DNA from: Myxococcota bacterium
Lineage (GTDB): Bacteria; Myxococcota; JAJVIH01
Length of the DNA stretch: 64,000 bases
Assembly (NCBI GenBank): GCA_022072125.1
Contig: JAJVIH010000054.1
Location: 20,368-84,367 of the forward strand
Reading direction: 5' to 3'
How positions within the stretch are numbered: the first letter of the stretch is position 1; each line of letters opens with the position of its first letter. The position numbers were made by a program, and so were the translations under genes. The notes below the pieces were generated by a model. The model did not search any database. It saw only the letters and a list, made by a program, of their open reading frames with translations, and was not told where the DNA came from. Of the stretch, positions 27,181 through 62,172 are shown piece by piece.

Positions 27181-27842
27181 GACAACCAGACAAACCACAA
27201 AAATCCGGCGTAGTACAGCGTATCGGGAACGATGCGCAGCAGATGTCCCCACATGAATCCCGATAGAATGAGCACGTCGGCTGACGCCCACAGGAAGTAG
27301 TACCCCAGCACAAACAACGACACGCGCTGGAACCACCGGATCAGGCTCTCCGGTTCGCCGTGGAGCAGGAGCCGCGATCGTGCGAGAAAACCGGCGGTGA
27401 GCGCCGCGAAAATCAGCTCGTAGGCCAGAAAGGTGTTGCGCGCGTTGGCGAAGAGGGCGGGGAAGAGCTTGATCAGCAGCGCCTGGCAGATGGGAACCAC
27501 CAACGCCAGGCCCAATGACGCCGGCCACCATTTCCACGCGCCGCGCGCGCCGCTGGAGATGGCGGGCAGAAGCAGCAGCACGAACCACCTCCAGTCGCCG
27601 AGGATCACAAACAGGATGGACACCTGCGTGTACAGGGGATGGGTGGTTTCCAGCGGACTCAGGGCGCCGGTGAACCAGGCGTCCAGCGCGATACACAGGG
27701 CGAAGCCCGCGGTCCAGCCCTTGAGCCAGGCGGGAGAGCGGCGTGTTGACAGCAGGACGGCGGCCAGCAACCCTGCGTTGGCGGCCCAGCAAACGCCGGG
27801 ATGGCGCCAGGCGGCATGGTAGATTTCCTCGAATGGATGCAT
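27147..27842 (-). CDS. hypothetical polytopic membrane protein
   Basis: 231 aa with about 6 hydrophobic helices, Trp/Phe-rich; occupies a different frame from the upstream extension of the cytochrome ORF; no family recognised. Confidence 0.55.
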   Translation of the reverse strand: MHPFEEIYHAAWRHPGVCWAANAGLLAAVLLSTRRSPAWLKGWTAGFALCIALDAWFTGALSPLETTHPLYTQVSILFVILGDWRWFVLLLLPAISSGARGAWKWWPASLGLALVVPICQALLIKLFPALFANARNTFLAYELIFAALTAGFLARSRLLLHGEPESLIRWFQRVSLFVLGYYFLWASADVLILSGFMWGHLLRIVPDTLYYAGFLWFVWLSCPVELRISDA

Positions 27843-27845
27843 CGG

Positions 27846-28469
27846 ATGGCTTTTCCTTCAAGCGAAACACGCGCTCCGGAACCGTTGCCGCACGAGTTTT
27901 TCGTCCGCGAGGTCACGCTGGTCGCCCGCGAATTGTTGGGTTGCGTGCTGGTTCATGGGCCGGTGGCGGCGCGCATCACCGAAACCGAAGCCTATGACTG
28001 GAAGGACGACAGCGCCAGTCACAGCCGTTCCGGGTTGACCAAACGCAACGCGGTCATGTTCGGACCGGCGGGCCGGTTGTATGTCTTCCGTTGTTATGGC
28101 GTTCACATGATGCTCAACGTGGTCACGGGGCGGGAAGGGCAGGGCGCGGCGGTTCTGTTGCGCGCGGGCGAGATCATTGCGGGCCATGCGCTGGCGTCGG
28201 AGCGGCGCGGCGGGGCCACGGGCGCGCAACTGGCTTCGGGACCCGGCCGCCTGGCGCGGGCGATGGGCCTGGATTTGCACTGGAACGGCCACTCGCTGGA
28301 CCATCACGGGAAATGCCGTCTTGTCCCGGGTCACCCTCCGGAGCGCATTCTGATGGGCGCGCGCGTGGGTATTGATTACGCCGAACCCGCCCACCGCGCA
28401 CGGCTCTGGCGTTTTGCCGATGCCGGCAGTCCTTCCGTGACCTGGCGAAAGCGCTTTCGCGCGGGGTGA
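27846..28469 (+). CDS. mpg: DNA-3-methyladenine glycosylase (Mpg/AAG family)
   Basis: Start chosen at ATG 27846 (MAFPSSE..); conserved Mpg blocks ETEAY, LTKRNAVMFGPAGRLYVF, GVHMMLNVV. Confidence 0.8.
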   Translation: MAFPSSETRAPEPLPHEFFVREVTLVARELLGCVLVHGPVAARITETEAYDWKDDSASHSRSGLTKRNAVMFGPAGRLYVFRCYGVHMMLNVVTGREGQGAAVLLRAGEIIAGHALASERRGGATGAQLASGPGRLARAMGLDLHWNGHSLDHHGKCRLVPGHPPERILMGARVGIDYAEPAHRARLWRFADAGSPSVTWRKRFRAG

Positions 28470-28584
28470 CTCGCCGCACGGTTCATCAGGGACGAGGAGC
28501 GGAGAGCGCTCCCCCCTGCCGCGTTTCGCTGGCGGGAAAATCCCCTGTTCCGTCTGTCCGCGGACAGAGAATCCATTAGCCCGG

Positions 28585-28660
28585 TTGATATGATTGATAT
28601 CTGATTTTATGTATAGTACTGTACAAATGATTACATATGGTTATGCTGATACCAGAACCG
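28585..28660 (+). promoter_or_regulatory. AT-rich promoter island upstream of the radical SAM gene
   Basis: Conspicuous AT-rich stretch in a GC-rich window with TTGATA hexamers, imperfect repeats TGATATGATTGATATCTGATT and TATAGTACTGTACAAATGATTACATAT; followed by SD-like AAAGGTGG before ATG 28677. Confidence 0.3.
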
Positions 28661-28676
28661 ATGAAAGGTGGAAGCC

Positions 28677-29657
28677 ATGGAATCCCTGCCGCTGTTTGAA
28701 CCCGCCGCCAGTTATGAAGATCGCCCGGTCATCGCCGGGCGCAACGGGGTGACCTACCGCGCACTGCAGGCGAAAAGCATCCTGAATTTCGCGAAGGGGT
28801 CGCGCATGAGCGATGTGTGGACCATCAACCCCTATCGTGGCTGCGAATTCGCCTGCGCCTACTGTTACGCACGCTACACCCATGAATACCTGGACCACGA
28901 GGATCCCATCGAGTTCGAACGGCAGGTGTACGTGAAGCAGGAAGCCGCGCGCATTCTCGACCGGGAACTGCGCAAACAGAACGTGCGGGATTTCTCCATC
29001 GCCATCGGCACGGCGACTGATCCCTACCAGCCCGCCGAGGCGCGCCACCAGGTGACCCGCTCCCTGCTGGAGGTGTTCCGCCGCTACACCGGTTTGAGCA
29101 TCGGCATCACCACCAAGGGCGCGCTGATCCGCCGCGACGTGGAGTTGCTGGCGGAGTTGTCGGCGCAGCACCGGTTGACGGTTCATCTGTCCATCGCATC
29201 GTTGGATGCGGAGTTCCTGCGCGTGGTCGAGGGCCGCACCGCCCATCCGGGGCATCGCCTCAAGGCGATGAAAATCCTGGCGGATGCGGGGGTGCGCGTG
29301 GGGCTGTTCATGCTGCCGGTCTTGCCATACCTGACGGACAGCGAGGCGCGCATGCGTCCGCTGTTGGCGGCGGCGCGCGATCACGGGGCGCGCTTCGCCA
29401 TCGGCGGACCGCTGTTTCTGATGAGCGCATCGCGGGTGGTGTATTTCAACTGGCTGCGTGAGACCCACCGGGACCTGCTGCCGAAGTATTTCGCGCTCTA
29501 CGCCAACTCCGGGGAGGCCCGCGAGGAATACCGTGCGGCGCTGAAATACCGTATCCGCCAGCTTGTGGAGGAACTGGGCCTGGAATACGGCATGGATGAA
29601 GACCTGATCACGGCCGGCCGCCGCATGCCGGGCGTGGTGAAATCCGCCTGTGGATGA
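28677..29657 (+). CDS. radical SAM protein, SplB-like (spore photoproduct lyase / DNA repair photolyase family, COG1533-type)
   Basis: ATG at 28677 preceded by AGGTGG; CxxxCxxC cluster in INPYRGCEFACAYCYAR; TIM-barrel-like length of about 325 aa. Confidence 0.85.
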   Translation: MESLPLFEPAASYEDRPVIAGRNGVTYRALQAKSILNFAKGSRMSDVWTINPYRGCEFACAYCYARYTHEYLDHEDPIEFERQVYVKQEAARILDRELRKQNVRDFSIAIGTATDPYQPAEARHQVTRSLLEVFRRYTGLSIGITTKGALIRRDVELLAELSAQHRLTVHLSIASLDAEFLRVVEGRTAHPGHRLKAMKILADAGVRVGLFMLPVLPYLTDSEARMRPLLAAARDHGARFAIGGPLFLMSASRVVYFNWLRETHRDLLPKYFALYANSGEAREEYRAALKYRIRQLVEELGLEYGMDEDLITAGRRMPGVVKSACG

Positions 29658-36089: not shown

Positions 36090-36425
36090 GACGATCAATC
36101 CTTTTCAGACTCTTGAAGCCAGTATAGAGGCGGTTTTCCACCCCCGCAAATTTAATGAGTCTGATAAATCGCAGCGGTGTTCCCGATGGTGTTCCTGAAC
36201 CGGGCGGAGGCGGGAAGCAGAGGGGGATGCAACCTTTCTCCGGAGGTTGCGGCGCCTGGGAGAAACCGGTGCGGGCCGGATACCCTATGATGGGACGTGT
36301 TTAATGTAATCGGTCATTTGACATTTTGGCGCCGGGAGGCGCTTGACTTGATGCAGTGCGGCAATGTAGCTTGCCTGCTCCGGGTGCCCATATCTTCACG
36401 AATCCAAGAACACAGGGAGCAATCC

Positions 36426-38207
36426 ATGCCGTGTAACAGCAAAATATCGCCATTGTTTCTGGCGATGGTCCTCGCGGCCAGCATTTCCGCCTGCGGGGGA
36501 GACGACAAGAATACCGGAACCAGCGATGGCGGCGGAGTCACCGATGGCTCCGGAAACAATGATCAGAGAGACGCAGGTCCTGGAACCTCCCTGGATGTGC
36601 CGCGTCCTGACACCCAGCCCGCGCCCGATGTGGGAGGAAGTGAAGAGGACTTCACCGACGGCAAGGTCCGCTGCCCCAATCTGAATGCTTGCGCCGCCGC
36701 CTGCCCGGATGGCGATTCAAGCTGCATCCAGAACTGTGTGCAGTCGGAAGGTCCAAGCTGCGGACGCTGCATCCAGGCATACCAGCGCTGTGTTCAGGAC
36801 AGCGGCTGCCTGGTCAACCAGGAAGTGGATGACAAATGCGCGTTTGACAAATGCGAAAAATACTTTGGCACCTGTTTTGGTCCGCGTCCGACCAAGAGCG
36901 ACTGCAAGTCGAACAAGGATTGCACCGACAGCAAAACCTGCGCGGTGGCGCTCGCTCCGGATGGAACCGGTCTGATCACCGCCTGCCAGAAAACCAACAC
37001 GGCCACCGGCAAGACCGGCGACAAATGCGATTCCAACAAGGATCCCAATGATCCGCAGTGCCCCAACTTCGGGCTGGCGGCCGCCTGCTTCCCGCTGAAC
37101 GATGGTTCGGGCGGCGTGTGCAGCGGTATCTGCTCGACCGATGCGGATTGCGGCGGTACGCTGATCTGCACCACGCTCAACATCCGCTACAGCGCCAACG
37201 ACCCGACCAAGACTTCGCCGGTGAGCATTTGCCAGGAGAAGGTGGTCGCCAACTGCAAGAAGAATCAGGACTGCAAGACCGGCCAAGTTTGCGGCGTCCG
37301 GCTGGACAACGCTGGCAAGGCGCTGGTCACCACTTGCGTCGCCCCGGTTGGCAAGCTGGCCGCCGGCGCCGCTTGCAATCCGGACCTGCAGGATCCGAAG
37401 CCCGAAGAGGAATGTGACATCGGCCTCTGCTTCAACAACGGCAAATGCGCCCAAACCTGCGGCGCCGACGCGGACTGCGGCAAGGACAATTCCTGCCAGG
37501 GCATCAACCTGCGCATTGGCGGCACCGAGGCCCGTCCGGAGTTCGGAACCGCGCCCTTCTGTGTTCCCTGCGCGGGTTCGTGCGCTGTCTGCAAATCCAA
37601 CGCGGAATGCCAGAATGGCGAGGTCTGCAAAATCGGCGCGACCATTGACGGCACGCCCGGCGGACGTTGCTCCGCCCCTGAAAAGGATGGTGTGGCTCCA
37701 GGCGAAAAATGCGGCGATCCCAAGAAGGGCGAAAAAGTCTGCGCCAATGATCTGTGCTTCCGTGCGGGAACCTGCGGCGCCCTCTGCGGAAAGCAGGAAG
37801 ACTGCCCGAAGGATTCGCGTTGCGTCTTCCAATCCATCTCCGCGGGCAAGGGGCTGACCCTGTGCGTTCCCTTCACGGGCAGCGCCAAGACCTGCAAGAA
37901 GGACGCGGACTGCACCGGCGGCGAAGTTTGCACCATCTTCCCGGGCGCCGAATCCAACAAGTTCGACACCGTGTGCGCCGCCGCGCAACCCAATGGCGTC
38001 AAGCCGGGTGAAGCCTGCGGCGATCCCGCCACTGGCGGCAAGGTTTGCGCCAACGACATTTGCCTGAACAACGGCAAATGCTCCGCGGTCTGCGACGCCG
38101 ACGCCGACTGCACCGCTGGAACCAAGTGCCAGCCGGTTCCGCTGACCAGCGGCGCCAACGCCCCGACCGTGAAGCTGTGCGTCCCGCCAGCTAACCCCAC
38201 GCCGTAA
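36426..38207 (+). CDS. Cys-rich repeat lipoprotein
   Basis: ATG at 36426 (lipobox SISAC); roughly ten repeats of the type G(E/D)xCGDP..GxKVCANDxC..G.C...C..D.DC; no enzymatic motif. Confidence 0.7.
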   Translation: MPCNSKISPLFLAMVLAASISACGGDDKNTGTSDGGGVTDGSGNNDQRDAGPGTSLDVPRPDTQPAPDVGGSEEDFTDGKVRCPNLNACAAACPDGDSSCIQNCVQSEGPSCGRCIQAYQRCVQDSGCLVNQEVDDKCAFDKCEKYFGTCFGPRPTKSDCKSNKDCTDSKTCAVALAPDGTGLITACQKTNTATGKTGDKCDSNKDPNDPQCPNFGLAAACFPLNDGSGGVCSGICSTDADCGGTLICTTLNIRYSANDPTKTSPVSICQEKVVANCKKNQDCKTGQVCGVRLDNAGKALVTTCVAPVGKLAAGAACNPDLQDPKPEEECDIGLCFNNGKCAQTCGADADCGKDNSCQGINLRIGGTEARPEFGTAPFCVPCAGSCAVCKSNAECQNGEVCKIGATIDGTPGGRCSAPEKDGVAPGEKCGDPKKGEKVCANDLCFRAGTCGALCGKQEDCPKDSRCVFQSISAGKGLTLCVPFTGSAKTCKKDADCTGGEVCTIFPGAESNKFDTVCAAAQPNGVKPGEACGDPATGGKVCANDICLNNGKCSAVCDADADCTAGTKCQPVPLTSGANAPTVKLCVPPANPTP

Positions 38208-38364: not shown

Positions 38365-38805
38365 TCAGAACGAACCACCCTCCCGCAGGTTGATTCCATA
38401 CTCCACGTACCCCTTCAGGCAGCACAACATATGCGTCCAGCCGCTGCAGTTGCCATAAGAGGATTCCAGGCCCTGGGGATTGTCCCGCCAACCGGATTCG
38501 GTGATCTGGACCATGGTATTTTGGGCGTCAATCGCCTTGAAGAGCATTTCCGTCCGGGTCAGGTAACCACCTTCGGTGGCCTCCCATTCCAGAACAATCC
38601 GCTCGTTTTTCACTACCTCGATCACCTGCACGTCGTGCTCTCCGGGAAACTCAGGAAACGACCACTTGACGGTGACGCCCGTGACCAGCGGTCCGCTGGC
38701 GCTTCTGGTGAAGTAGCCGCTGAGTTTTTCCGGGTTGGCCACGGCGTCGAAGACTTCGGGAACTGGCTTGCGGATTTTCAACTGCACCTGGAATTTGAGG
38801 GGCAT
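38365..38805 (-). CDS. SRPBCC-family protein (AHSA1 / activator of Hsp90 ATPase-like)
   Basis: 146 aa; pattern typical of AHSA1-domain proteins that pair with ArsR regulators (KIRKPVPEVFDAVANPEKL..W). Confidence 0.75.
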   Translation of the reverse strand: MPLKFQVQLKIRKPVPEVFDAVANPEKLSGYFTRSASGPLVTGVTVKWSFPEFPGEHDVQVIEVVKNERIVLEWEATEGGYLTRTEMLFKAIDAQNTMVQITESGWRDNPQGLESSYGNCSGWTHMLCCLKGYVEYGINLREGGSF

Positions 38806-38843
38806 GGCTATTCCTTCCGGAAGTTTGGATATTCCTGATTGTT

Positions 38844-38863
38844 ATGTTATAAAAATATAACAT
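38844..38863. promoter_or_regulatory. perfect palindrome ATGTTATA-AAAA-TATAACAT, candidate ArsR operator
   Basis: 8-bp perfect inverted arms with 4-bp A spacer in the 56-bp AT-rich divergent intergenic region; overlaps the ArsR start codon (ATG 38862). Confidence 0.55.
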
Positions 38864-39191
38864 GTCAAGCGAGGCGGAAGCGGACCTGGTGTTCAAGGCT
38901 CTTGCGGACAACAGGCGGCGCGAAATCCTGGACCTCCTGAGGTCGCGGCCGCGCACCACGGGGGAGCTTTGCCGTCATTTCGGGGATTCGCTTGATCGCT
39001 GCACGGTCATGCAGCATATGGGCGTGCTGGAAAAGGCCGGGCTGATCATCGTGGTGCGGGAAGGCAGGAAACGCTGGAATTACCTTAACGCCGCGCCGAT
39101 CCGGGAGATTTACGACCGGTGGATATCTCCCTATGCGGAGGAAGCGGTCTTGCGCCTGTCCAGACTCAAGAAAGAACTCGAAAGGAAATGA
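38862..39191 (+). CDS. ArsR/SmtB-family transcriptional regulator
   Basis: 109 aa; winged-HTH signature LADNRRREILDLL..TTGELCRHFGDSLDRCTVMQHMGVLEKAGLI. Confidence 0.8.
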   Translation: MSSEAEADLVFKALADNRRREILDLLRSRPRTTGELCRHFGDSLDRCTVMQHMGVLEKAGLIIVVREGRKRWNYLNAAPIREIYDRWISPYAEEAVLRLSRLKKELERK

Positions 39192-39245: not shown

Positions 39246-41867
39246 TCACCCATCCGCGCATGGGCGCACAATCCGCACCTCGCCGCGGACGCCGTCCAGG
39301 TACAATTCGTCGCCGGTGCGGATCACCCGCGTGGCGTTGTCCACGTTGACCACCGCCGGGATGCCGTATTCACGGGCGACAATGCACGAATGTGACAGCG
39401 GGCCGCCCAGTTCGGTCACCACGCCGGATGCGATCAGGAAAAGCGGCGTCCAACCCACGTCGGTGAAGGGCGTGACGAGGATTTCGCCGTGGCGCAGCAG
39501 GCTGGCGTCCTTCAAATCGCGGATGACCCGCGCGGTCCCGCGCGCCTGGCCGGGAGAGCCGCCCAGGCCGTGCAAGGTCTGCCCCCCTGGCGCCGCCCCG
39601 GTCCATGCGGATTCCTCCACCGGCGCACCGCCGAGGATGAAGCCGGCGGGGGGATCGTCCAGAAGCGACGCGGCGTGAAACTCCATGCGGCGCAGAGCGA
39701 TGCGGGTGCGCACATCCTCGCGCAGGTCTCCGGACAGAAAAGCCTCGATCTCCGGCAGCGTCAGGAAAAACACGGCGTCCGTACGGTCAATCAGCCCGGC
39801 GGCATGCATGCGCGCGCCTGCCTCCAGGAAAATTTTCCGGTACATGCCGATACTTTGCGACACATAGTCGCGCAGTTCCTCGCGCAGCCGCATGGATTGC
39901 CGGGTGAAGCCGAGCGCGGCCTCGAACACCGGACGGAGCGGAGCCGGAATTTCCGATCTCAACCGTTGCGTCGCGGCGCGGCGGGCGGCCCTGCGTCGCT
40001 CCTCGATTTCCACCGGGTTGGCGATTTTGGGCTGTTCCACATGCCGCTGCAGGATGGAGAAAATCACCGCTTCGTTTTCAATCCACCGCGGGGTGGATAG
40101 TTCGGCTTCGCGGGCGGCGCGGAAACCGAAGTCGTTCATGAAGGCGTCCATGCGGCGCAGGAATTTTCTTCCCGCCGGCGTGGTTTCCAACTTGCCGCGG
40201 ACATCGTCAGGATCGCTGGCGGCCAGCACCTCCGCGACCGCGGGCATCTGTTTGGCTAGAATCGCCAGTTCCAGCAGCACCAGGCCCGGCTTGGCGCTTT
40301 GCACGGAGGTGAGCCCGGAGATGACCGCGCTCTGCTCGTCGAGCAGCCCATCGGGAAACGCGCGCTTCAACCCCCAGGTCATGACAATGAAACTGGCGAG
40401 GGCGTTGGAAGCGCATTCCAGCATGATTTCGCCGTTCATATTGAAGACGCTGGTCAGATGCCGCGTGAGCCGCAGCAACTCCTCCGGCTTCATGGCGGAG
40501 AGGTCGAGGCTGAAAAAGCGGTCGCGCTCCGCACGAAAAGTACGCCCCCAGGTTTTGGCGCGGGCGGGATTCCACAATTGCGAAGCCGCCAGCCGGGGCA
40601 GGGTGAACGGCAACCGGAGCAGGAATTGCACGGGCGAGAGTTTTTCGTAGTTGCCGCGCAGTTCCTCCAGGCCGCGTCCGCCCCCGGCGCCCAGCAACAT
40701 TTCCGGGCTGAGAAAGGGCAACTGGGATGCGATGGTCATGAACTCGGTCAGATTCAGGTAGATGCGTCCCCGGAAACTGCCGACCAGCCCGAAATCCTCC
40801 GGGACATCCAGGCCAAGCGCGCCAAACGCCTTTTCAAATCCGCGCCGCGAAAAGGAATGGATGATGGACCAGGTTGCGGGCGTGGCCACGCCGGGCAGCG
40901 CCTCGCCGACGTTGACGTTCGACCACACCGTGCGGGGAAAACGCTTGTGGCCCGCGCCCGCGCTGATGGGGCGGGTTTGCAGCACCTGAAATCCGCCATC
41001 CTGGAGGGCCCATTCGATATCCTGAGGTTCCCCCCAGGCGCTTTCGATTTCGCGGCCCAGCCGCCACAATATGGCGATCTGCGCCGGAGTCAGCGATTCC
41101 GATCGCTGGAAGGCGGATTCCACCGGCTGCTTTTCCAGTCCGCCCTTCTCCGATGGACGGAGCAGCGTGGTTTTCGCGGCGATGGAAGAGCGCAGCACCA
41201 TGCCGCTTTCGCGGTCCACGTACCAGGTGTCCGCGGCGCCGCCGCCAACCACGGTTTCACCCAGCCCCCACGCGGCGTTAATGACCATTTCATCGCCGTG
41301 ACCGCTCACGGGATTGCGGGAGAACACCACACCGGCTGTTTTTGCATCCACCAGATGCTGGATGATCACCGCCATGGAATTGGGGTTCGTCACGCCGCCG
41401 CCGCGCAGGTTGTACAGCATGGCGTTGCGGGAATGGAGCGCCGCCCAGCATTCGCGGATGGCTGGCGATAGCGCCTCTTCGCTGGAGATATTGAGCAGGG
41501 TCAGTTGCATGCCCGCGTGGCTGCCCGCGCTGGCGTCCTCGCCGGTGGCGCTGGACCGCACGGCGCAACGTGGTCCGAAGCGGCTGGTCAAGTCGCGCCA
41601 TGCGGAGAGGATGGCGTGTTCAACGCGCGCAGGGATGGGAGCTTGCAAGATGGACTCGCGGAGCGCCTCGAAAGAGGAAAAATCCGGCTCGAAGCTGGCC
41701 AGGAAGAGTTCGTACGCTGCCGTGGAAATGCAGAATCCGGGGGGAACCGGCGCGCCAAACCGGGTGAGGCGCAGCAGGTTGGACGCCTTTCCGCCAAACC
41801 ATTCCGGGAAGGGCGGCTGGCAGGAATGCAGCGAAATGACCAGCGGGGTTTCGATGTAACGCTTCAT
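39246..41867 (-). CDS. PEP-utilising enzyme family protein (PEP synthase / rifampicin-phosphotransferase-like architecture)
   Basis: Start at ATG 41867 (MKRYIETPL); N-terminal ATP-grasp-like pyruvate phosphate dikinase domain (GGKASNL); C-terminal phospho-histidine mobile domain GGPLSHSCIVAREYGIPAVV. Confidence 0.8.
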   Translation of the reverse strand: MKRYIETPLVISLHSCQPPFPEWFGGKASNLLRLTRFGAPVPPGFCISTAAYELFLASFEPDFSSFEALRESILQAPIPARVEHAILSAWRDLTSRFGPRCAVRSSATGEDASAGSHAGMQLTLLNISSEEALSPAIRECWAALHSRNAMLYNLRGGGVTNPNSMAVIIQHLVDAKTAGVVFSRNPVSGHGDEMVINAAWGLGETVVGGGAADTWYVDRESGMVLRSSIAAKTTLLRPSEKGGLEKQPVESAFQRSESLTPAQIAILWRLGREIESAWGEPQDIEWALQDGGFQVLQTRPISAGAGHKRFPRTVWSNVNVGEALPGVATPATWSIIHSFSRRGFEKAFGALGLDVPEDFGLVGSFRGRIYLNLTEFMTIASQLPFLSPEMLLGAGGGRGLEELRGNYEKLSPVQFLLRLPFTLPRLAASQLWNPARAKTWGRTFRAERDRFFSLDLSAMKPEELLRLTRHLTSVFNMNGEIMLECASNALASFIVMTWGLKRAFPDGLLDEQSAVISGLTSVQSAKPGLVLLELAILAKQMPAVAEVLAASDPDDVRGKLETTPAGRKFLRRMDAFMNDFGFRAAREAELSTPRWIENEAVIFSILQRHVEQPKIANPVEIEERRRAARRAATQRLRSEIPAPLRPVFEAALGFTRQSMRLREELRDYVSQSIGMYRKIFLEAGARMHAAGLIDRTDAVFFLTLPEIEAFLSGDLREDVRTRIALRRMEFHAASLLDDPPAGFILGGAPVEESAWTGAAPGGQTLHGLGGSPGQARGTARVIRDLKDASLLRHGEILVTPFTDVGWTPLFLIASGVVTELGGPLSHSCIVAREYGIPAVVNVDNATRVIRTGDELYLDGVRGEVRIVRPCADG

Positions 41868-42424
41868 CCGGTGAACGCCGCGTCGTGAAAAATCTCCGCC
41901 TGGAAAATCTCCATGTGTGGCAGGCGTCCGCGCAGGTCCTCCAGCCGGAAACCGGCCTTGCGGCATGTGGCTTCAAGAAATTCATGCGGCGTCCAGTTGT
42001 ATTCCGCCGCCACCTGCGGCAGCAGCACGCCGCGCCATCCCATCCACTCGACCATCAGGCCGTCGCGTCCCACCGTGATCTCCCCGATGGAATGGATGGC
42101 TTGGCGCGGACTGAGCACGCTGATCTCGACGCCCAGGCCGCCAAATTCATCCGGAGACAGGGGATCGAAACGCGGGTCGCGGGTGGCGGCCGAGCGGGCC
42201 ATGTCCGCCACGGTCTCCAGCAGGGGACGGGAGTCATCAAAGGTTCCAATGCACCCCCGCAATTCGCCGCGGACATGCAGGGTTACAAAGGCGCCGTGCG
42301 GGGCCAGGGTTTCCGGGGGGGGATGGTCAGGTGGAGAAAACCGCTCTCCACGCGCGGCGGCGCAGGCCGCCTGCCGGGCGGTCTCCAGCAGGAACTGGCG
42401 GCTGGAATCAGAGAGCATGCTCAT
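41864..42424 (-). CDS. AMMECR1-domain protein
   Basis: Start at ATG 42424 (MSMLSD..); conserved AMMECR1 block [19 protein letters not shown]; stop overlaps the downstream start by 4 bp. Confidence 0.8.
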
Positions 42425-42846
42425 CTTTCCGCTGGCGGCCGCCGGCCGGTATCGCGCCAGACAAAATAGTCCGCAAGGATTTGCCCGTGGTCGAAACACA
42501 GGTTGGCCGGTAATTCCTCGCGTTTGAAAAAGCGAACGCCCATGGCGTCGTCGCCCGCGCGCGGCTCCCCCGCGGCCCATCCGGCGAAGACCACGGAGAC
42601 CGTGTGTTTCCGCTTGTCGCGGGCGGGATTGCTGTAGGCGAAGAACTGTTCGAGCAGTTCGGTCTCCAGGCCGGTTTCCTCGCGAATTTCCCGGCGGGCG
42701 GCTTCCGCCACATGTTCGCCGGGCTCCACGAACCCGCCGGGCAACGCCCAGCCCAACGGCTCGAATTTCCGTTCGATGAGCACGATTCCACGCGGGTGCT
42801 CGATGATGACATCCACAGTCAAAAAGGGGCCGGTCCGGGAATCCAT
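42421..42846 (-). CDS. NUDIX hydrolase
   Basis: Start at ATG 42846 (MDSRTG..); Nudix box [24 protein letters not shown]; stop overlaps the AMMECR1 start. Confidence 0.75.
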
Positions 42847-43065
42847 GGCGCGGGCGTACAATGGCGTTCGTGCGGGGTCAAGGGGGCGGCATGGGGGTCA
42901 TTCTTTCCAGTGCTGGCGCATGAAAGTGGAATGGCGGGAACCGGCCCATGGGAGGCGTAGAGGAGGATTGCGGGAGCCAGACCCTGCAGCCACCCCACCC
43001 CACGGGTGGCGGTTGAGCGCTGGAGAAGCATGGACTATACTCCCGCGCCGGTTTTGTGAGGTTTT

Positions 43066-44439
43066 GTGAACGTGCAGGTCAATTCTCCATCACCCGCCGT
43101 GCCGGGATCGCAGGATATCCGGCGCATCCATTTCATCTCGCTCGGGTGTCCCAAGAACCGCGTGGATACCGAGGTCATGGTTGGCAAGGCCCTGGGCGCC
43201 GGTTACCAGTTGGAAGACGATCCCGCCGAGAGCGATGTGATTGTGGTCAATACCTGTGGTTTTCTGCAGGCCTCCGCCGAGGAGTCCATTGACACCATCC
43301 TCGACATGGCCGCCTACAAGCAAAGCGGCAGGCTGAAGACCCTGGTCATGGCCGGTTGTCTGGTGCAGCGCCACGCCGACGAATTGGCCGCCGAACTCCC
43401 CGAGGTGGACCATTTCATCGGCACCGGAGAATTTCATCGCCTGACCGATTTGCTGGCGACCAGCGGCTCCCGCCTGGCGGTGGATACGCCCATCTACGTG
43501 CTCGACCACCGCACTCCGCGCACCATCACCACGGCGCACCACGCGGTCTACCTTAAGATCAGCGAAGGTTGCGACAACAAATGCGCCTTCTGTATCATCC
43601 CCACGCTGCGCGGCGCGCAACGCTCGCGGCCGGTCAACGACCTGGTGGCGGAAGCCAAGGCGCTGACGGCGGCCGGAGCAAAGGAGATCACGCTCATCGC
43701 CCAGGATCTGACCGCTTATGGTTATGATCAGGAACCGCGCACCGATCTGGCGGACCTGCTTGACGGGCTCAGCGGCGTCAACGGCCTGCGCTGGATTCGC
43801 CTGCTCTACGCCTACCCGCGCCGTTTCCCCGGACGCATGCTCGACCTGATGCGCGAGCGCGAGAATATCGTTCCCTATCTCGACATGCCTTTGCAGCACA
43901 TCAACGATGAGATGCTGCGCGCCATGCGCCGGGGCCGCGATTCGGCGTTCATCCGCCTCCTCCTCGACACCATCCGCGAAAAGGTTCCGGGAATCACCCT
44001 TCGCACCACCTTTATCGTGGGATTTCCCGGCGAGACAGACGCGCAGTTCGAGGAACTAGTCAAATTCGTCGAGGAATACCAGTTCGAGCGCATGGGCGTG
44101 TTTGGCTATTCGCAAGAGCCCGGGACTCCCGCCGGGGAAATGCCCGGCCAGCTTCCAGCGGAGGTCATTGAAGAGCGCCGCAAGCACCTGATGGGCGTGC
44201 AGCGGAAAATCTCCCGCCGCCAACAGCGCAAGATGCTGGGCCAGGTGATTGATGTGCTGGTGGAAGGCCCCAGCGATGAAACCGAACACTTGCTGGTGGG
44301 GCGGGACAAATCCCGGGCTCCCGAAATTGACGGGCTCGTTTACATCAATGACGGCGCTCCGGCCATTGGCGACATTGTCAAGGTCAAGATCACCGAGGCG
44401 GGCGATTACGATCTTGTCGGACATGTGGTTCCCGGGTGA
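43066..44439 (+). CDS. rimO: ribosomal protein S12 methylthiotransferase RimO
   Basis: MTTase N-terminal Cys (LGCPKN, NTCGF); radical SAM CxxxCxxC in ISEGCDNKCAFCIIP; C-terminal TRAM domain; GTG start at 43066 is approximate. Confidence 0.9.
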   Translation: MNVQVNSPSPAVPGSQDIRRIHFISLGCPKNRVDTEVMVGKALGAGYQLEDDPAESDVIVVNTCGFLQASAEESIDTILDMAAYKQSGRLKTLVMAGCLVQRHADELAAELPEVDHFIGTGEFHRLTDLLATSGSRLAVDTPIYVLDHRTPRTITTAHHAVYLKISEGCDNKCAFCIIPTLRGAQRSRPVNDLVAEAKALTAAGAKEITLIAQDLTAYGYDQEPRTDLADLLDGLSGVNGLRWIRLLYAYPRRFPGRMLDLMRERENIVPYLDMPLQHINDEMLRAMRRGRDSAFIRLLLDTIREKVPGITLRTTFIVGFPGETDAQFEELVKFVEEYQFERMGVFGYSQEPGTPAGEMPGQLPAEVIEERRKHLMGVQRKISRRQQRKMLGQVIDVLVEGPSDETEHLLVGRDKSRAPEIDGLVYINDGAPAIGDIVKVKITEAGDYDLVGHVVPG

Positions 44440-51300: not shown

Positions 51301-52421
51301 TTCGCCAGATCCCGCCAAATCCGCTCCACGCCGTCCGCCATGGCCTGCAGGGAAAAACGCTCTCGTGCAATGACCCGGGCGCTTTCGCCCATGGTCTCGC
51401 GGAGCGCGGGATCCCGGATCAATCGTTCCAGGTGACGGGCGAGTTCTTCCGCACAGCCGGGCCGCGACAGCAGACCCGTCCGTTCATGCGTCACCGCCTC
51501 CGGAACGCCGGCGATCCGGCTGGCCGCCACGGGCAGACCCGCCATCATTGCTTCCAGAATGCTGATCGGCAACCCCTCGCCGCTGACGGATGGGAAGACA
51601 AACACATCCGCGGCGCGCATCAATGCGGGAATATCGTCGCGCCAGCCGGTCAGGCGCACGCGGGTGCGCGCGCCGGGATCGGGCTGTTTGAGCAGTTCCC
51701 GGGATCGGGCCGCGAAGTCATGGCTTCCCCCGGCGATGATCAGCCATGGATCAAGGCCGCGATCATGCAGAAGTTGGAAGGAACGCATCAACACATCATG
51801 CCCTTTCGCGGGGATCAGCTTGCCGGCCGACAGCAGAACCGCCGCGTTCTCCGGAATTCCCAGCGTTGCGCGTATGGACTTGCGCGCGGAGTCCGGAGCG
51901 GGTTGCTCCGGAACTCCGTAGGGAACCACCACGGTTTTCTCCGGAACGCCCGGGACATGGCGGTAGGCGTCGCGCGCGGCCTGGCAGCAGGCGATGACGC
52001 GCGAAGCCCGGTTCAACAGCCGGCGATCCACCCGGTTTTGCCGGGTGAAGACATTGTGCAGCGTCCACACCAGGGGAGTGGAAGGCGGCGTGGCTTCCGC
52101 GGCGTATTTCATGGCGTAGAAGGCGTTGGCGTGGACGATGGCGGGGGCCGTTTCGCGAATGAGTTCGTGGAGCCGTCTCACGCCCTTGCCGGAAACCCAG
52201 GGCAGGTGATTGACGCGGAAGGGCAGGGCGTCAAACTCCAGCGGAATGACTTCCACGCCCTGCGCCCGCGCCCGCTTCTCCATTTCGCCGCCGGGCGGAC
52301 ACGCCAGCACGTGCTTCCAGCGCGGGGGAGGCAGCGCGGCGCACAGGCGCAGCATCGCCATCTGCCCTCCCGAAACCCACGGAAACGGGTCCAGCCACAG
52401 AATCACCGGAGATTGGCTCAC
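51297..52421 (-). CDS. GT4-family glycosyltransferase
   Basis: GT-B C-terminal motif ..VFVFPSVSGEGLPISILEAMMAGLPVAAS..; start overlaps recD2 stop. Confidence 0.85.
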   Translation of the reverse strand: MSQSPVILWLDPFPWVSGGQMAMLRLCAALPPPRWKHVLACPPGGEMEKRARAQGVEVIPLEFDALPFRVNHLPWVSGKGVRRLHELIRETAPAIVHANAFYAMKYAAEATPPSTPLVWTLHNVFTRQNRVDRRLLNRASRVIACCQAARDAYRHVPGVPEKTVVVPYGVPEQPAPDSARKSIRATLGIPENAAVLLSAGKLIPAKGHDVLMRSFQLLHDRGLDPWLIIAGGSHDFAARSRELLKQPDPGARTRVRLTGWRDDIPALMRAADVFVFPSVSGEGLPISILEAMMAGLPVAASRIAGVPEAVTHERTGLLSRPGCAEELARHLERLIRDPALRETMGESARVIARERFSLQAMADGVERIWRDLAK

Positions 52422-61040: not shown

Positions 61041-62090
61041 TCATGGGCAACGGTTGCCCGGTTTCAGGCAATAGCCGAATTCGCGTCCGCCGCTGGTGCT
61101 TTTGCAGCAGACTTCCCCGGATCCGCAGCAGGTATCCGAGCAGCGGTAGGCCGAGAACGTGCAGGTTAGTCCGCATTTGCCTGCGGAACAGGTGGCGTTG
61201 GAGACGTCCTTCCGTCCTTCCGGACACTTCTTTCCGCAGTCGCCACAGTGTTTCGGGTCGCGGCTGGTGTCCGTGCAGATATCTTCCCCTTCGGCGGATT
61301 TACAGAGTTTTTCCGTGGCCTCGCACTGGATTTTGCACACCCCGCTTTCGCAAACCGCCTCGCCGCCGCTTGCGCCGGCGTCACAGACCTTTCCACAGCC
61401 GCTGCAGTTGTTGGGATCGCTGCGGATATCCACGCAGCCGCCGTTGCAGACGGCGTGGCCAAAGGGGCATTCCGTGACGCATTTGCTATTCAGGCATTTG
61501 GCGGTTCCGCCGCCCGGTTGCTCACAGTAGGCGCCACAGAATCCGCAGTTGCCCGGATCGGTTGTGGTGTCCACGCAGCGGCCTTCGCACATGCTCATGG
61601 TTCCCTTGCACTTCAGGCCGCATCCGCCGGCGTTGCAGACCGCGTCGGCGTTGGGCGCGCCCGGGCATTTGAAGCCGCAGCTTCCGCAGTTCTCCGTATC
61701 GGTTTTCAGGTTGGCGCAGCCGCGCGGACAGGGGGTTTCGCCGCTCCGGCAATCGCCTCCGCCTCCGCCGGAATCCTGCGGTGGGGGAATGTCCGGAGAG
61801 GACAGATCACTTCCGCCGCCGGAGCGATCGGTTACGCCTGCGTCGGGGCATAAACCCTCGATCACGCAAACGCCGTTGCAGAGTTCAAATCCATCCGTGC
61901 AGGAGACGGGTTTTCCGCCCTGGTCGCCCAGGCTGGCGTCGGAGCCGCTGGCGCCGGTCCCGCCGCCGCTGGTGGAGCCGCCCGAGATAAACCCGCCCTT
62001 TTTAACGGCCTCCTCGCCGCCGCAAGCGTCCAGCGCCACCAGCAGGGCGCACAAACCCGTCAGCCGGAGCAGAAGCGATTTTGCAGTCAT
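61041..62090 (-). CDS. Cys-rich repeat lipoprotein (CGxCG-type repeats)
   Basis: Start at ATG 62090 (MTAKSLLLRLTGLCALLVALDAC, lipobox); Gly/Ser linker; about 8 repeats of D..NCGxCGxxC..G.C. Confidence 0.7.
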   Translation of the reverse strand: MTAKSLLLRLTGLCALLVALDACGGEEAVKKGGFISGGSTSGGGTGASGSDASLGDQGGKPVSCTDGFELCNGVCVIEGLCPDAGVTDRSGGGSDLSSPDIPPPQDSGGGGGDCRSGETPCPRGCANLKTDTENCGSCGFKCPGAPNADAVCNAGGCGLKCKGTMSMCEGRCVDTTTDPGNCGFCGAYCEQPGGGTAKCLNSKCVTECPFGHAVCNGGCVDIRSDPNNCSGCGKVCDAGASGGEAVCESGVCKIQCEATEKLCKSAEGEDICTDTSRDPKHCGDCGKKCPEGRKDVSNATCSAGKCGLTCTFSAYRCSDTCCGSGEVCCKSTSGGREFGYCLKPGNRCP

Positions 62091-62172
62091 GACAATCCCC
62101 TGAAATGATCGAGGCGTTCCCACGCGGAGGCCACATCATACTTGTTTTTGTTCAAAGCGCCACCGTCCGCGC

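Follow-up and report, generated by a model that had tools for sequence, protein, structure and literature searches.

A probable lineage-specific gene string joining Nudix, AMMECR1 and RPH/PigC-type dikinase genes in a Myxococcota genome

Introduction

Do genes packed so tightly that their start and stop codons overlap also act on a common metabolite? This question is raised by three consecutive minus-strand genes in a stretch of 64,000 nucleotides from a Myxococcota bacterium (GTDB lineage JAJVIH01; assembly GCA_022072125.1, contig JAJVIH010000054.1, positions 20,368 to 84,367). This whole 64-kb stretch is hereafter called the window, and coordinates refer to it. The three genes encode a Nudix hydrolase, an AMMECR1 protein and a large protein with domains of the phosphoenolpyruvate (PEP) synthase type. 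AMMECR1 is conserved from archaea to humans. A sequence-only reading of the window had proposed that the trio forms a small-molecule phosphorylation/pyrophosphate-processing module. Here, we show that the large protein belongs to the rifampin phosphotransferase (RPH)/PigC family of single-polypeptide small-molecule dikinases, and we examine the surroundings of homologues of each of the three proteins. With a probability of about 0.72, the trio is a lineage-specific, co-transcribed gene string and not a dedicated pathway, in which an RPH/PigC-type dikinase lies behind a loosely recurrent Nudix-AMMECR1 pair.

Results

The three genes are packed without intergenic space

The open reading frame (ORF) listing and direct reading of the strand show that the Nudix gene (42846..42421; 141 amino acids; PF00293, E 5.5e-24), the AMMECR1 gene (42424..41864; 186 amino acids; PF01871, E 1.9e-48) and the dikinase gene (41867..39246; 873 amino acids; PPDK_N, E 2e-66; PEP-utilizers, E 2e-22) follow one another on the minus strand. 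All three gene models are the proteins deposited for an 87-kb contig of a Myxococcota metagenome-assembled genome, with 100% identity and coverage. At the first junction (gaaagATGAgcatg, 42424-42421, context 'gaaagATGAgc'), the ATG of AMMECR1 shares four bases with the TGA of the Nudix gene. At the second (ccggATGAagcg, 41867-41864, context 'ccggATGAag'), the ATG of the dikinase gene overlaps the TGA of AMMECR1 in the same way. Both the overlaps and the domain calls (Nudix, AMMECR1, PPDK_N/PEP-utilizers) of the sequence-only reading are therefore borne out, the former by the sequence and the latter by Pfam profile searches.

Since no intergenic space is left inside the string, the 219 bp that separate the Nudix gene from the divergent rimO gene (42847..43065) would be the only place for a promoter of the trio. 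A consensus scan of this region gave one sigma-70-like site only, which lies on the plus strand, faces rimO and is not above shuffle expectation. Promoter and terminator consensus matches were at shuffle level, and no Rfam family was detected between 36 and 46 kb of the window. The trio is almost certainly co-transcribed. A defence-system reading was rejected, PADLOC returning nothing for AMMECR1 or the dikinase and a weak, generic match for the Nudix protein.

Overlapping junctions are common in the window

How informative are two consecutive four-base overlaps? Rough gene calls for the whole window were made from ORF length and GC content at third codon positions, and every same-strand junction was examined. 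On these rough calls, an exact ATGA or GTGA overlap of four bases occurs at 7 of the 22 same-strand adjacent junctions. Outside the trio, it joins RimO to a DegT-type aminotransferase (44436-44439), a RecD2 helicase to a GT4 glycosyltransferase (52418-52421), an Ig-domain protein to a prolyl oligopeptidase, the prolyl oligopeptidase to a 771-amino-acid protein without assigned family, and a class-V aminotransferase to a DUF4920 protein. Because 7 of 22 junctions carry it, unrelated pairs among them, the four-base overlap is the default packing of this compact genome; the junctions of the trio are real, not distinctive. They argue for co-transcription and co-expression, not for a common function or chemistry, and in a compact, GC-rich genome such overlaps are no evidence of common function.

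The trio is not found at homologous loci

The surroundings of homologues were compared from the side of each protein. For the dikinase, the homologue alignment was run against GTDB, with each species represented by one genome, and gave 440 relatives. The best 80 of these 440 are 36-45% identical and belong to Myxococcota (Bradymonadales, Sandaracinaceae and Polyangiales among them); each was taken together with flanks of up to 10 kb. By tblastn, the Nudix and AMMECR1 proteins of the window were found at none of these 80 loci, even at E<=1e-2. Family profile hidden Markov models (HMMs) of AMMECR1 and Nudix likewise found neither at 83 dikinase-homologue loci (1.32 Mb in total). For AMMECR1, a metagenome scan supplied 80 loci and look-ups another 5, and an RPH-like gene was present at none of these 85 by tblastn and HMM. 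Finally, the trio was absent from the 8 loci fetched from the Nudix side and scanned by HMM. The ATGA junction between AMMECR1 and a dikinase gene was seen at none of the other loci examined. As the trio is not co-conserved (0/83 and 0/85 loci), the proposed phosphorylation/pyrophosphate-processing module is not supported.

No other partner of the dikinase emerged. Its two closest homologues (45% identity) lie among FHA, AMP-binding, OEP and methyltransferase genes. Clustering of the neighbours of the 80 dikinase loci revealed lineage-level synteny only, with RluA-like, TPR, MepA-like and PurF-like proteins, each at no more than 25 of the 80 loci. Overall, the dikinase clade is common across Myxococcota, and its homologues have no recurring partner gene at the loci examined.

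The Nudix-AMMECR1 pair recurs loosely

The Nudix protein carries a complete Nudix box, read from the translation as G38-x5-E44-x7-R52-E53-I54-x-E56-E57-x-G59-L60 (GX5EX7REUXEEXGU; nt 42667-42735). It belongs to a widespread subfamily of about 140 amino acids, with 58-67% identity to many matches, those in Myxococcaceae and cyanobacteria included. The closest solved structure is 2YYH from Aquifex (E 4.9e-36), and no NCBIfam equivalog was matched.

Besides the window, the Nudix-AMMECR1 pair was found in two contexts. At locus L154 (GC 45%), a Nudix gene (53% identity) is followed by AMMECR1 and by a sensor kinase gene, the pair being flanked by Lon and this sensor kinase. In the deltaproteobacterial metagenome-assembled genomes of L170 (5001-7749) and L171 (2205-4953), with a GC content of 69%, an orthologous Nudix gene (62% identity, with the C-terminal tail in common) overlaps, in an ATGA junction, the gene of a 160-amino-acid AMMECR1-like protein, closely followed by that of a 614-amino-acid beta-propeller protein; ABC transporters and the beta-propeller protein flank the pair. 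This AMMECR1-like protein is detected by HMM only and is degenerate, with RGFHG in place of RGCIG, whereby the predicted catalytic Cys is lost, and DPRV in place of DPRF.

These contexts could mean that Nudix and AMMECR1 alone form a functional unit, for instance on a nucleotide-linked or RNA-related substrate, with the dikinase as a passenger. Gene order and orientation of the pair are constant in three contexts that are not syntenic otherwise (the window, L154 and L170/L171), the third gene being different each time, and two specific genes would come to lie side by side at random far more rarely. However, the Nudix gene occurs at just 1 of the 85 AMMECR1 loci (L154). Among the five other Nudix lineages whose context was inspected, three have a Peptidase_M50 gene downstream and one has no co-directional gene there, and at L170 the predicted catalytic Cys is lost. 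Neither was a Nudix-AMMECR1 fusion found among the top 120 matches of either protein, nor did a literature search, in which AMMECR1 with RPH-like enzymes was not a search topic, find a paper tying AMMECR1 functionally to Nudix enzymes. We regard a dedicated two-gene unit as tentative and on balance unlikely, although the two proteins may share a nucleotide-related function independent of the dikinase. Should the pairing hold up statistically in a wider set of genomes, it could offer a clue to the chemistry of AMMECR1.

As a separate observation, in three lineages (L169, L173 and L174-L176) a Nudix gene of this subfamily is directly followed by a Peptidase_M50/PDZ site-2-protease-like gene, with MoaE/ThiS nearby; in this small sample, such an arrangement is commoner than that with AMMECR1.

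AMMECR1 and its usual partners

The AMMECR1 protein passes the TIGR04335 model (AmmeMemoSam_A) with 158.7 bits against a cut-off of 99. RGCIG (residues 56-60, nt 42245-42259) and DPRF (residues 83-86, nt 42167-42178), the motifs predicted to form its active site, consist of residues that are invariant in the alignment of AMMECR1 homologues. An RGChG motif with a conserved Cys and a DxR-aromatic motif have been proposed as the AMMECR1 active site, and analysis of the RAGNYA fold predicts binding of nucleotides or nucleic acids (Balaji and Aravind 2007, PMC2034487). Among solved structures, PH0010 (1VAJ) comes closest. The nearest homologues, found in diverse lineages of which most are anaerobic, are only 40-55% identical.

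Direct tblastn showed Memo adjacent to, or fused with, AMMECR1 at 29 of the 85 AMMECR1 loci, and at 13 of the 31 loci that reach at least 8 kb. The radical SAM enzyme AmrS was present at 4 of the 85. This count replaces the outcome of single-linkage clustering, in which AMMECR1 homologues had no Memo neighbour; that outcome was rejected because fusions had merged the two families. Memo-AMMECR1 fusions of about 500 amino acids occur at L111, L112, L116, L125, L130, L141 and L142, and AmrS lies near four of these. In the window, neither Memo nor AmrS was found by tblastn with sequences from related loci (E<=1e-2), and no Memo was found by Pfam scans of about 50 ORFs. The sequence-only reading had stated that neither partner is adjacent to AMMECR1, which holds for the entire 64 kb.

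The radical SAM genes of the window are two in number. The first, overlooked by the sequence-only reading, adjoins the Nudix gene upstream and is divergent from it (43066-44439, plus strand). It encodes RimO (TIGR01125, 495 bits against a cut-off of 357) and not an AmmeMemoRadiSam partner. An association of AMMECR1 with a MiaB-related radical SAM enzyme was remarked in 2007 (PMC2034487). We rejected RimO as such an enzyme, because it passes the RimO equivalog model and MiaB-family genes lie near AMMECR1 at only 2 of the 85 loci. These two genes (L110 1795-3135 and L116 2249-3382), which lie within 3 kb of AMMECR1, are 28-29% identical to the RimO of the window, and their proximity is probably due to chance. 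The second radical SAM gene (28668-29657) was rejected as an AmrS partner since it belongs to the Rv2578c/PA0069 family.

An improbable common pathway for the three proteins

Could Nudix, AMMECR1 and dikinase nevertheless act on one metabolite, as a phosphorylation/pyrophosphate-processing module assembled in this lineage? Nothing separates the three genes: both junctions are ATGA overlaps, which leaves no room for an internal promoter. In the window AMMECR1 is devoid of its usual Memo partner, which leaves room for others, and a Nudix enzyme could plausibly fit its predicted nucleotide or nucleic-acid binding. These points have to be set against the absence of the trio from all 168 related loci (83 + 85; tblastn and HMM) and from the 8 Nudix loci, against the change of the third gene in both other lineages that have the Nudix-AMMECR1 pair, against the similar overlaps that join unrelated genes at five other places of the window and against the want of a recurring partner gene in the dikinase clade across Myxococcota. 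We consider this module improbable. A narrower version, in which an RPH-like dikinase was recruited downstream of an older Nudix-AMMECR1 pair and all three proteins act on one nucleotide-linked or phenolic metabolite, has only a slim chance of being correct; if true, it would provide a first biochemical handle on the AMMECR1 reaction.

Some observations weigh against the interpretation of the trio as a lineage-specific gene string. The closest relatives are distant (45-46% identity for the dikinase, 51-55%, or 57% over a partial alignment, for AMMECR1 and 67% for Nudix). Because the databases hold no close relative, the negative results on co-conservation do not extend to the family or order of this bacterium. 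A gapless trio with two consecutive ATGA junctions enforces co-expression and is compatible with a recently assembled functional unit. In addition, with only five other Nudix contexts sampled, the estimate of how often Nudix pairs with AMMECR1 is poor. Taking these points into account, a functional trio specific to this lineage still appears improbable, and a co-transcribed gene string remains the preferred interpretation.

The large protein belongs to the RPH/PigC family of small-molecule dikinases

In the 873-amino-acid protein, Pfam places an ATP-grasp domain (PPDK_N) at residues 24-303 (nt 40959-41798) and a His swivel domain (PEP-utilizers) at residues 792-862 (nt 39282-39494). Between them, a helical substrate-binding domain spans about residues 304-791 (nt 39495-40958; precomputed PF27448 'Rph_4th'). 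By sequence, the closest solved relatives are Listeria RPH entries (5hv1 and 5fbs, E ~1e-80). An alignment of 37 homologues was used for an AlphaFold2 model (pLDDT 85.7, pTM 0.83) and for residue invariance. The top Foldseek matches of this model are full-length structures of the Listeria enzyme, RPH-Lm (E 1.6e-42, about 900 aligned columns), with 20-23% identity in the structural alignment. PEP synthase and pyruvate phosphate dikinase (PPDK) match the model over its ATP-grasp part only.

The catalytic positions of RPH-Lm can be traced in the protein. K27, R104 and T123 of the ATP site align to K22, R117 and T136, R662-E663 to R666-E667, R666 to K670, a conservative Lys to Arg change, and H826 to H825. 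The residues listed as invariant in the 37 homologues are K27, R104, R662, E663, R666 and H826; T123 is not listed. Mutagenesis of RPH-Lm showed that R666-E667 are essential for the second phosphotransfer and that His825 is the phospho-carrier (PMC4844700). In the window, the codon of the predicted phospho-carrier, His826, lies at 39390..39392, and those of the predicted second phosphotransfer site, R662-E663-E664-L665-R666, at 39870..39884. If the protein works like its homologue RPH, ATP would bind to the ATP-grasp domain (K27, R104, T123), and His826 on the C-terminal swivel would take the beta-phosphate, with release of AMP and Pi. The swivel domain would then move to the helical middle domain, where R662, E663 and R666 would position the phosphohistidine, and the phosphate would pass to a hydroxyl (or aldehyde) of some small molecule.

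The curated NCBIfam models match the protein below their cut-offs: RedH with 480 bits over the full length (cut-off 1350), PigC with 437 bits, also over the full length (1300), RPH NF041857 with 367.8 bits (999), RPH NF000283 with 256.8 bits (1700) and PEP synthase TIGR01418 with 262.5 bits (739.75). A canonical PEP synthase was rejected: besides the TIGR01418 score, Pfam found no PEP-utilizers_C TIM barrel (PF02896), and the His domain is C-terminal, not central. The sequence-only reading had set the protein apart from canonical PEP synthase and compared it to three-domain phosphotransferases with a mobile His domain, and the matches to RPH-Lm agree with it on both counts. The protein is a member of the RPH/PigC family of small-molecule dikinases, built as a single polypeptide, and scores below every curated RPH, PigC and RedH cut-off. 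The family is large, with 7,245 representatives at 50% clustering matching the protein at E<=1e-30, and the RPH/dikinase family has been described as one of widespread small-molecule dikinases (PMC4844700, PMC12167813).

Could the protein be a genuine rifamycin phosphotransferase, and thus an antibiotic resistance gene product? It shares with RPH the three-domain architecture and the catalytic positions, Arg standing in for K670, and some homologues in databases are automatically annotated 'rifampicin phosphotransferase'. However, both RPH models stay far below their cut-offs, and the RedH and PigC models outscore them. Identity to RPH-Lm is low, and phmmer leaves residues 303-523 unaligned. 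These are the counterpart of much of the rifampin pocket, including the part with Gln336, Tyr351, Leu478 and Phe479; together with Met673, these residues contact rifampin in RPH (PMC4844700). Because this pocket-forming region has no sequence alignment to RPH, rifampin is probably not the substrate, and a rifamycin phosphotransferase is very unlikely. A condensing enzyme of the PigC/RedH type for a prodiginine-like pigment, as implied by the deposited annotation 'PigC', can practically be dismissed: the RedH and PigC models are indeed the top NCBIfam matches and HapC/PigC-type enzymes carry Arg at the K670-equivalent position, as R666 does here, but the scores are about one third of the cut-offs, no pig or red pathway family was recognised by Pfam in about 50 ORFs of the window (no pig- or red-specific model being searched), and homologues are widespread across Myxococcota with housekeeping-looking neighbours. 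The deposited name 'PigC' is an over-annotation, and RPH/PigC-family small-molecule dikinase is a better one.

Across the Myxococcota clade (L001-L080), the start of the substrate domain bears an invariant NVGEALPGV motif, and many further residues of the domain are invariant. This strong conservation of the substrate domain, together with housekeeping-looking neighbours in about a quarter of the loci (names read from cluster representative sequences, without profile search), suggests that the clade acts on one conserved physiological substrate and not on varied xenobiotics. The dikinase of the window has a best homologue at 45.5% identity, compared with a median best match of 63.5% for other clade members.

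Neighbouring genes

Downstream of the dikinase gene lies the divergent ArsR/SRPBCC pair announced by the sequence-only reading, with ArsR at 38862..39191 (plus strand) and SRPBCC/AHSA1 at 38805..38365 (minus strand). The 56-bp gap between them contains a 13-nucleotide inverted repeat (TTGTTATGTTATA / TATAACATGTCAA, 4 nucleotides apart, 38839-38868) that overlaps the start of ArsR and is a plausible candidate for an ArsR operator. Since this repeat lies in the ArsR-SRPBCC intergenic region and the ArsR and dikinase genes are convergent, ArsR most likely controls its own pair; a role as regulator of the trio was rejected.

On the other side, RimO is followed, between 44436 and 52421, by genes for the DegT-type aminotransferase (4-bp overlap), an NAD-epimerase (8-bp overlap), a CMAS-like methyltransferase, a small PP-binding carrier, an acyl-ACP-desaturase-like protein, a Polysacc_synt flippase and a GT4 glycosyltransferase, which may be a sugar or lipid modification cluster. 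At 27801-29657 (plus strand), a methylpurine-DNA glycosylase gene precedes the radical SAM gene of the Rv2578c/PA0069 family (257 bits, below the cut-off of 430); the two look like a DNA-repair pairing. Two cysteine-rich, apparently secreted proteins are also encoded in the window, one of 636 amino acids with repeats (36297-38207, plus strand; weak Dickkopf_N match only, no NCBIfam family) and one of 360 amino acids with Stig1-like repeats (61041-62123, minus strand).

Discussion

As it stands, the finding matters little. Part of that little is the correction of the database over-annotation 'PigC', and the large uncharacterised clade of single-chain dikinases in Myxococcota is a minor lead.

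How does the locus compare with known systems? The likeness to AmmeMemoRadiSam (TIGR04335/6/7) lies in the AMMECR1 protein, which scores above the cut-off of the protein A model and retains both the RGCxG and the DxR-aromatic motif. In contrast, its neighbours are Nudix and RPH-like genes, and neither Memo nor AmrS occurs in the 64-kb window. The Nudix protein matches Aquifex aeolicus 2YYH over nearly the full length (139 vs 141 amino acids, with a complete Nudix box). The label '8-oxo-dGTPase domain' of that structural genomics entry is the depositors' name, and no tested substrate was found for the subfamily. Genomic partners of this subfamily vary, being Peptidase_M50, AMMECR1 or none.

With PEP synthase and PPDK, the dikinase shares the PPDK_N ATP-grasp and PEP-utilizers His domains. 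They have a TIM barrel and a central His domain, whereas the dikinase is without the barrel and has its His domain at the C-terminus. The phenolic dikinases HpeHI, CreHI and PpsAB, the last being phenylphosphate synthase, have a homologous ATP-grasp domain (HpeI, PDB 9GOJ, E 5e-31) and perform phosphohistidine-mediated dikinase chemistry onto a small-molecule hydroxyl (PMC12167813). However, they consist of two polypeptides and are encoded in aromatic catabolic clusters, whereas the 873-amino-acid protein is a single chain and Pfam scans recognised no aromatic-catabolism family among its neighbours.

The prodiginine ligases PigC, RedH and HapC have the same three-domain architecture, the best NCBIfam scores over the full length and Arg at the K670-equivalent position. 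They differ in that the dikinase scores about a third of the PigC and RedH cut-offs and that no pigment pathway families were recognised in the window.

RPH-Lm (PDB 5FBS/5FBT/5FBU/5HV1; Stogios et al. 2016, PMC4844700) differs from the dikinase by its identity of about 20-23%, by the equivalog cut-offs that the dikinase fails, by the region 303-523, which is not alignable, and by the Lys at position 670 that is Arg in the dikinase; nothing points to rifamycin. The likeness is nevertheless extensive. Both proteins have an ATP-grasp domain, a helical domain and a C-terminal His swivel, and are of similar length (867 vs 873 amino acids). Conserved as well are the ATP-site Lys, Arg and Thr, the Arg-Glu pair at the second site and the His that carries the phosphate. 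Among solved structures, RPH-Lm is the best match of the dikinase both in sequence and in fold.

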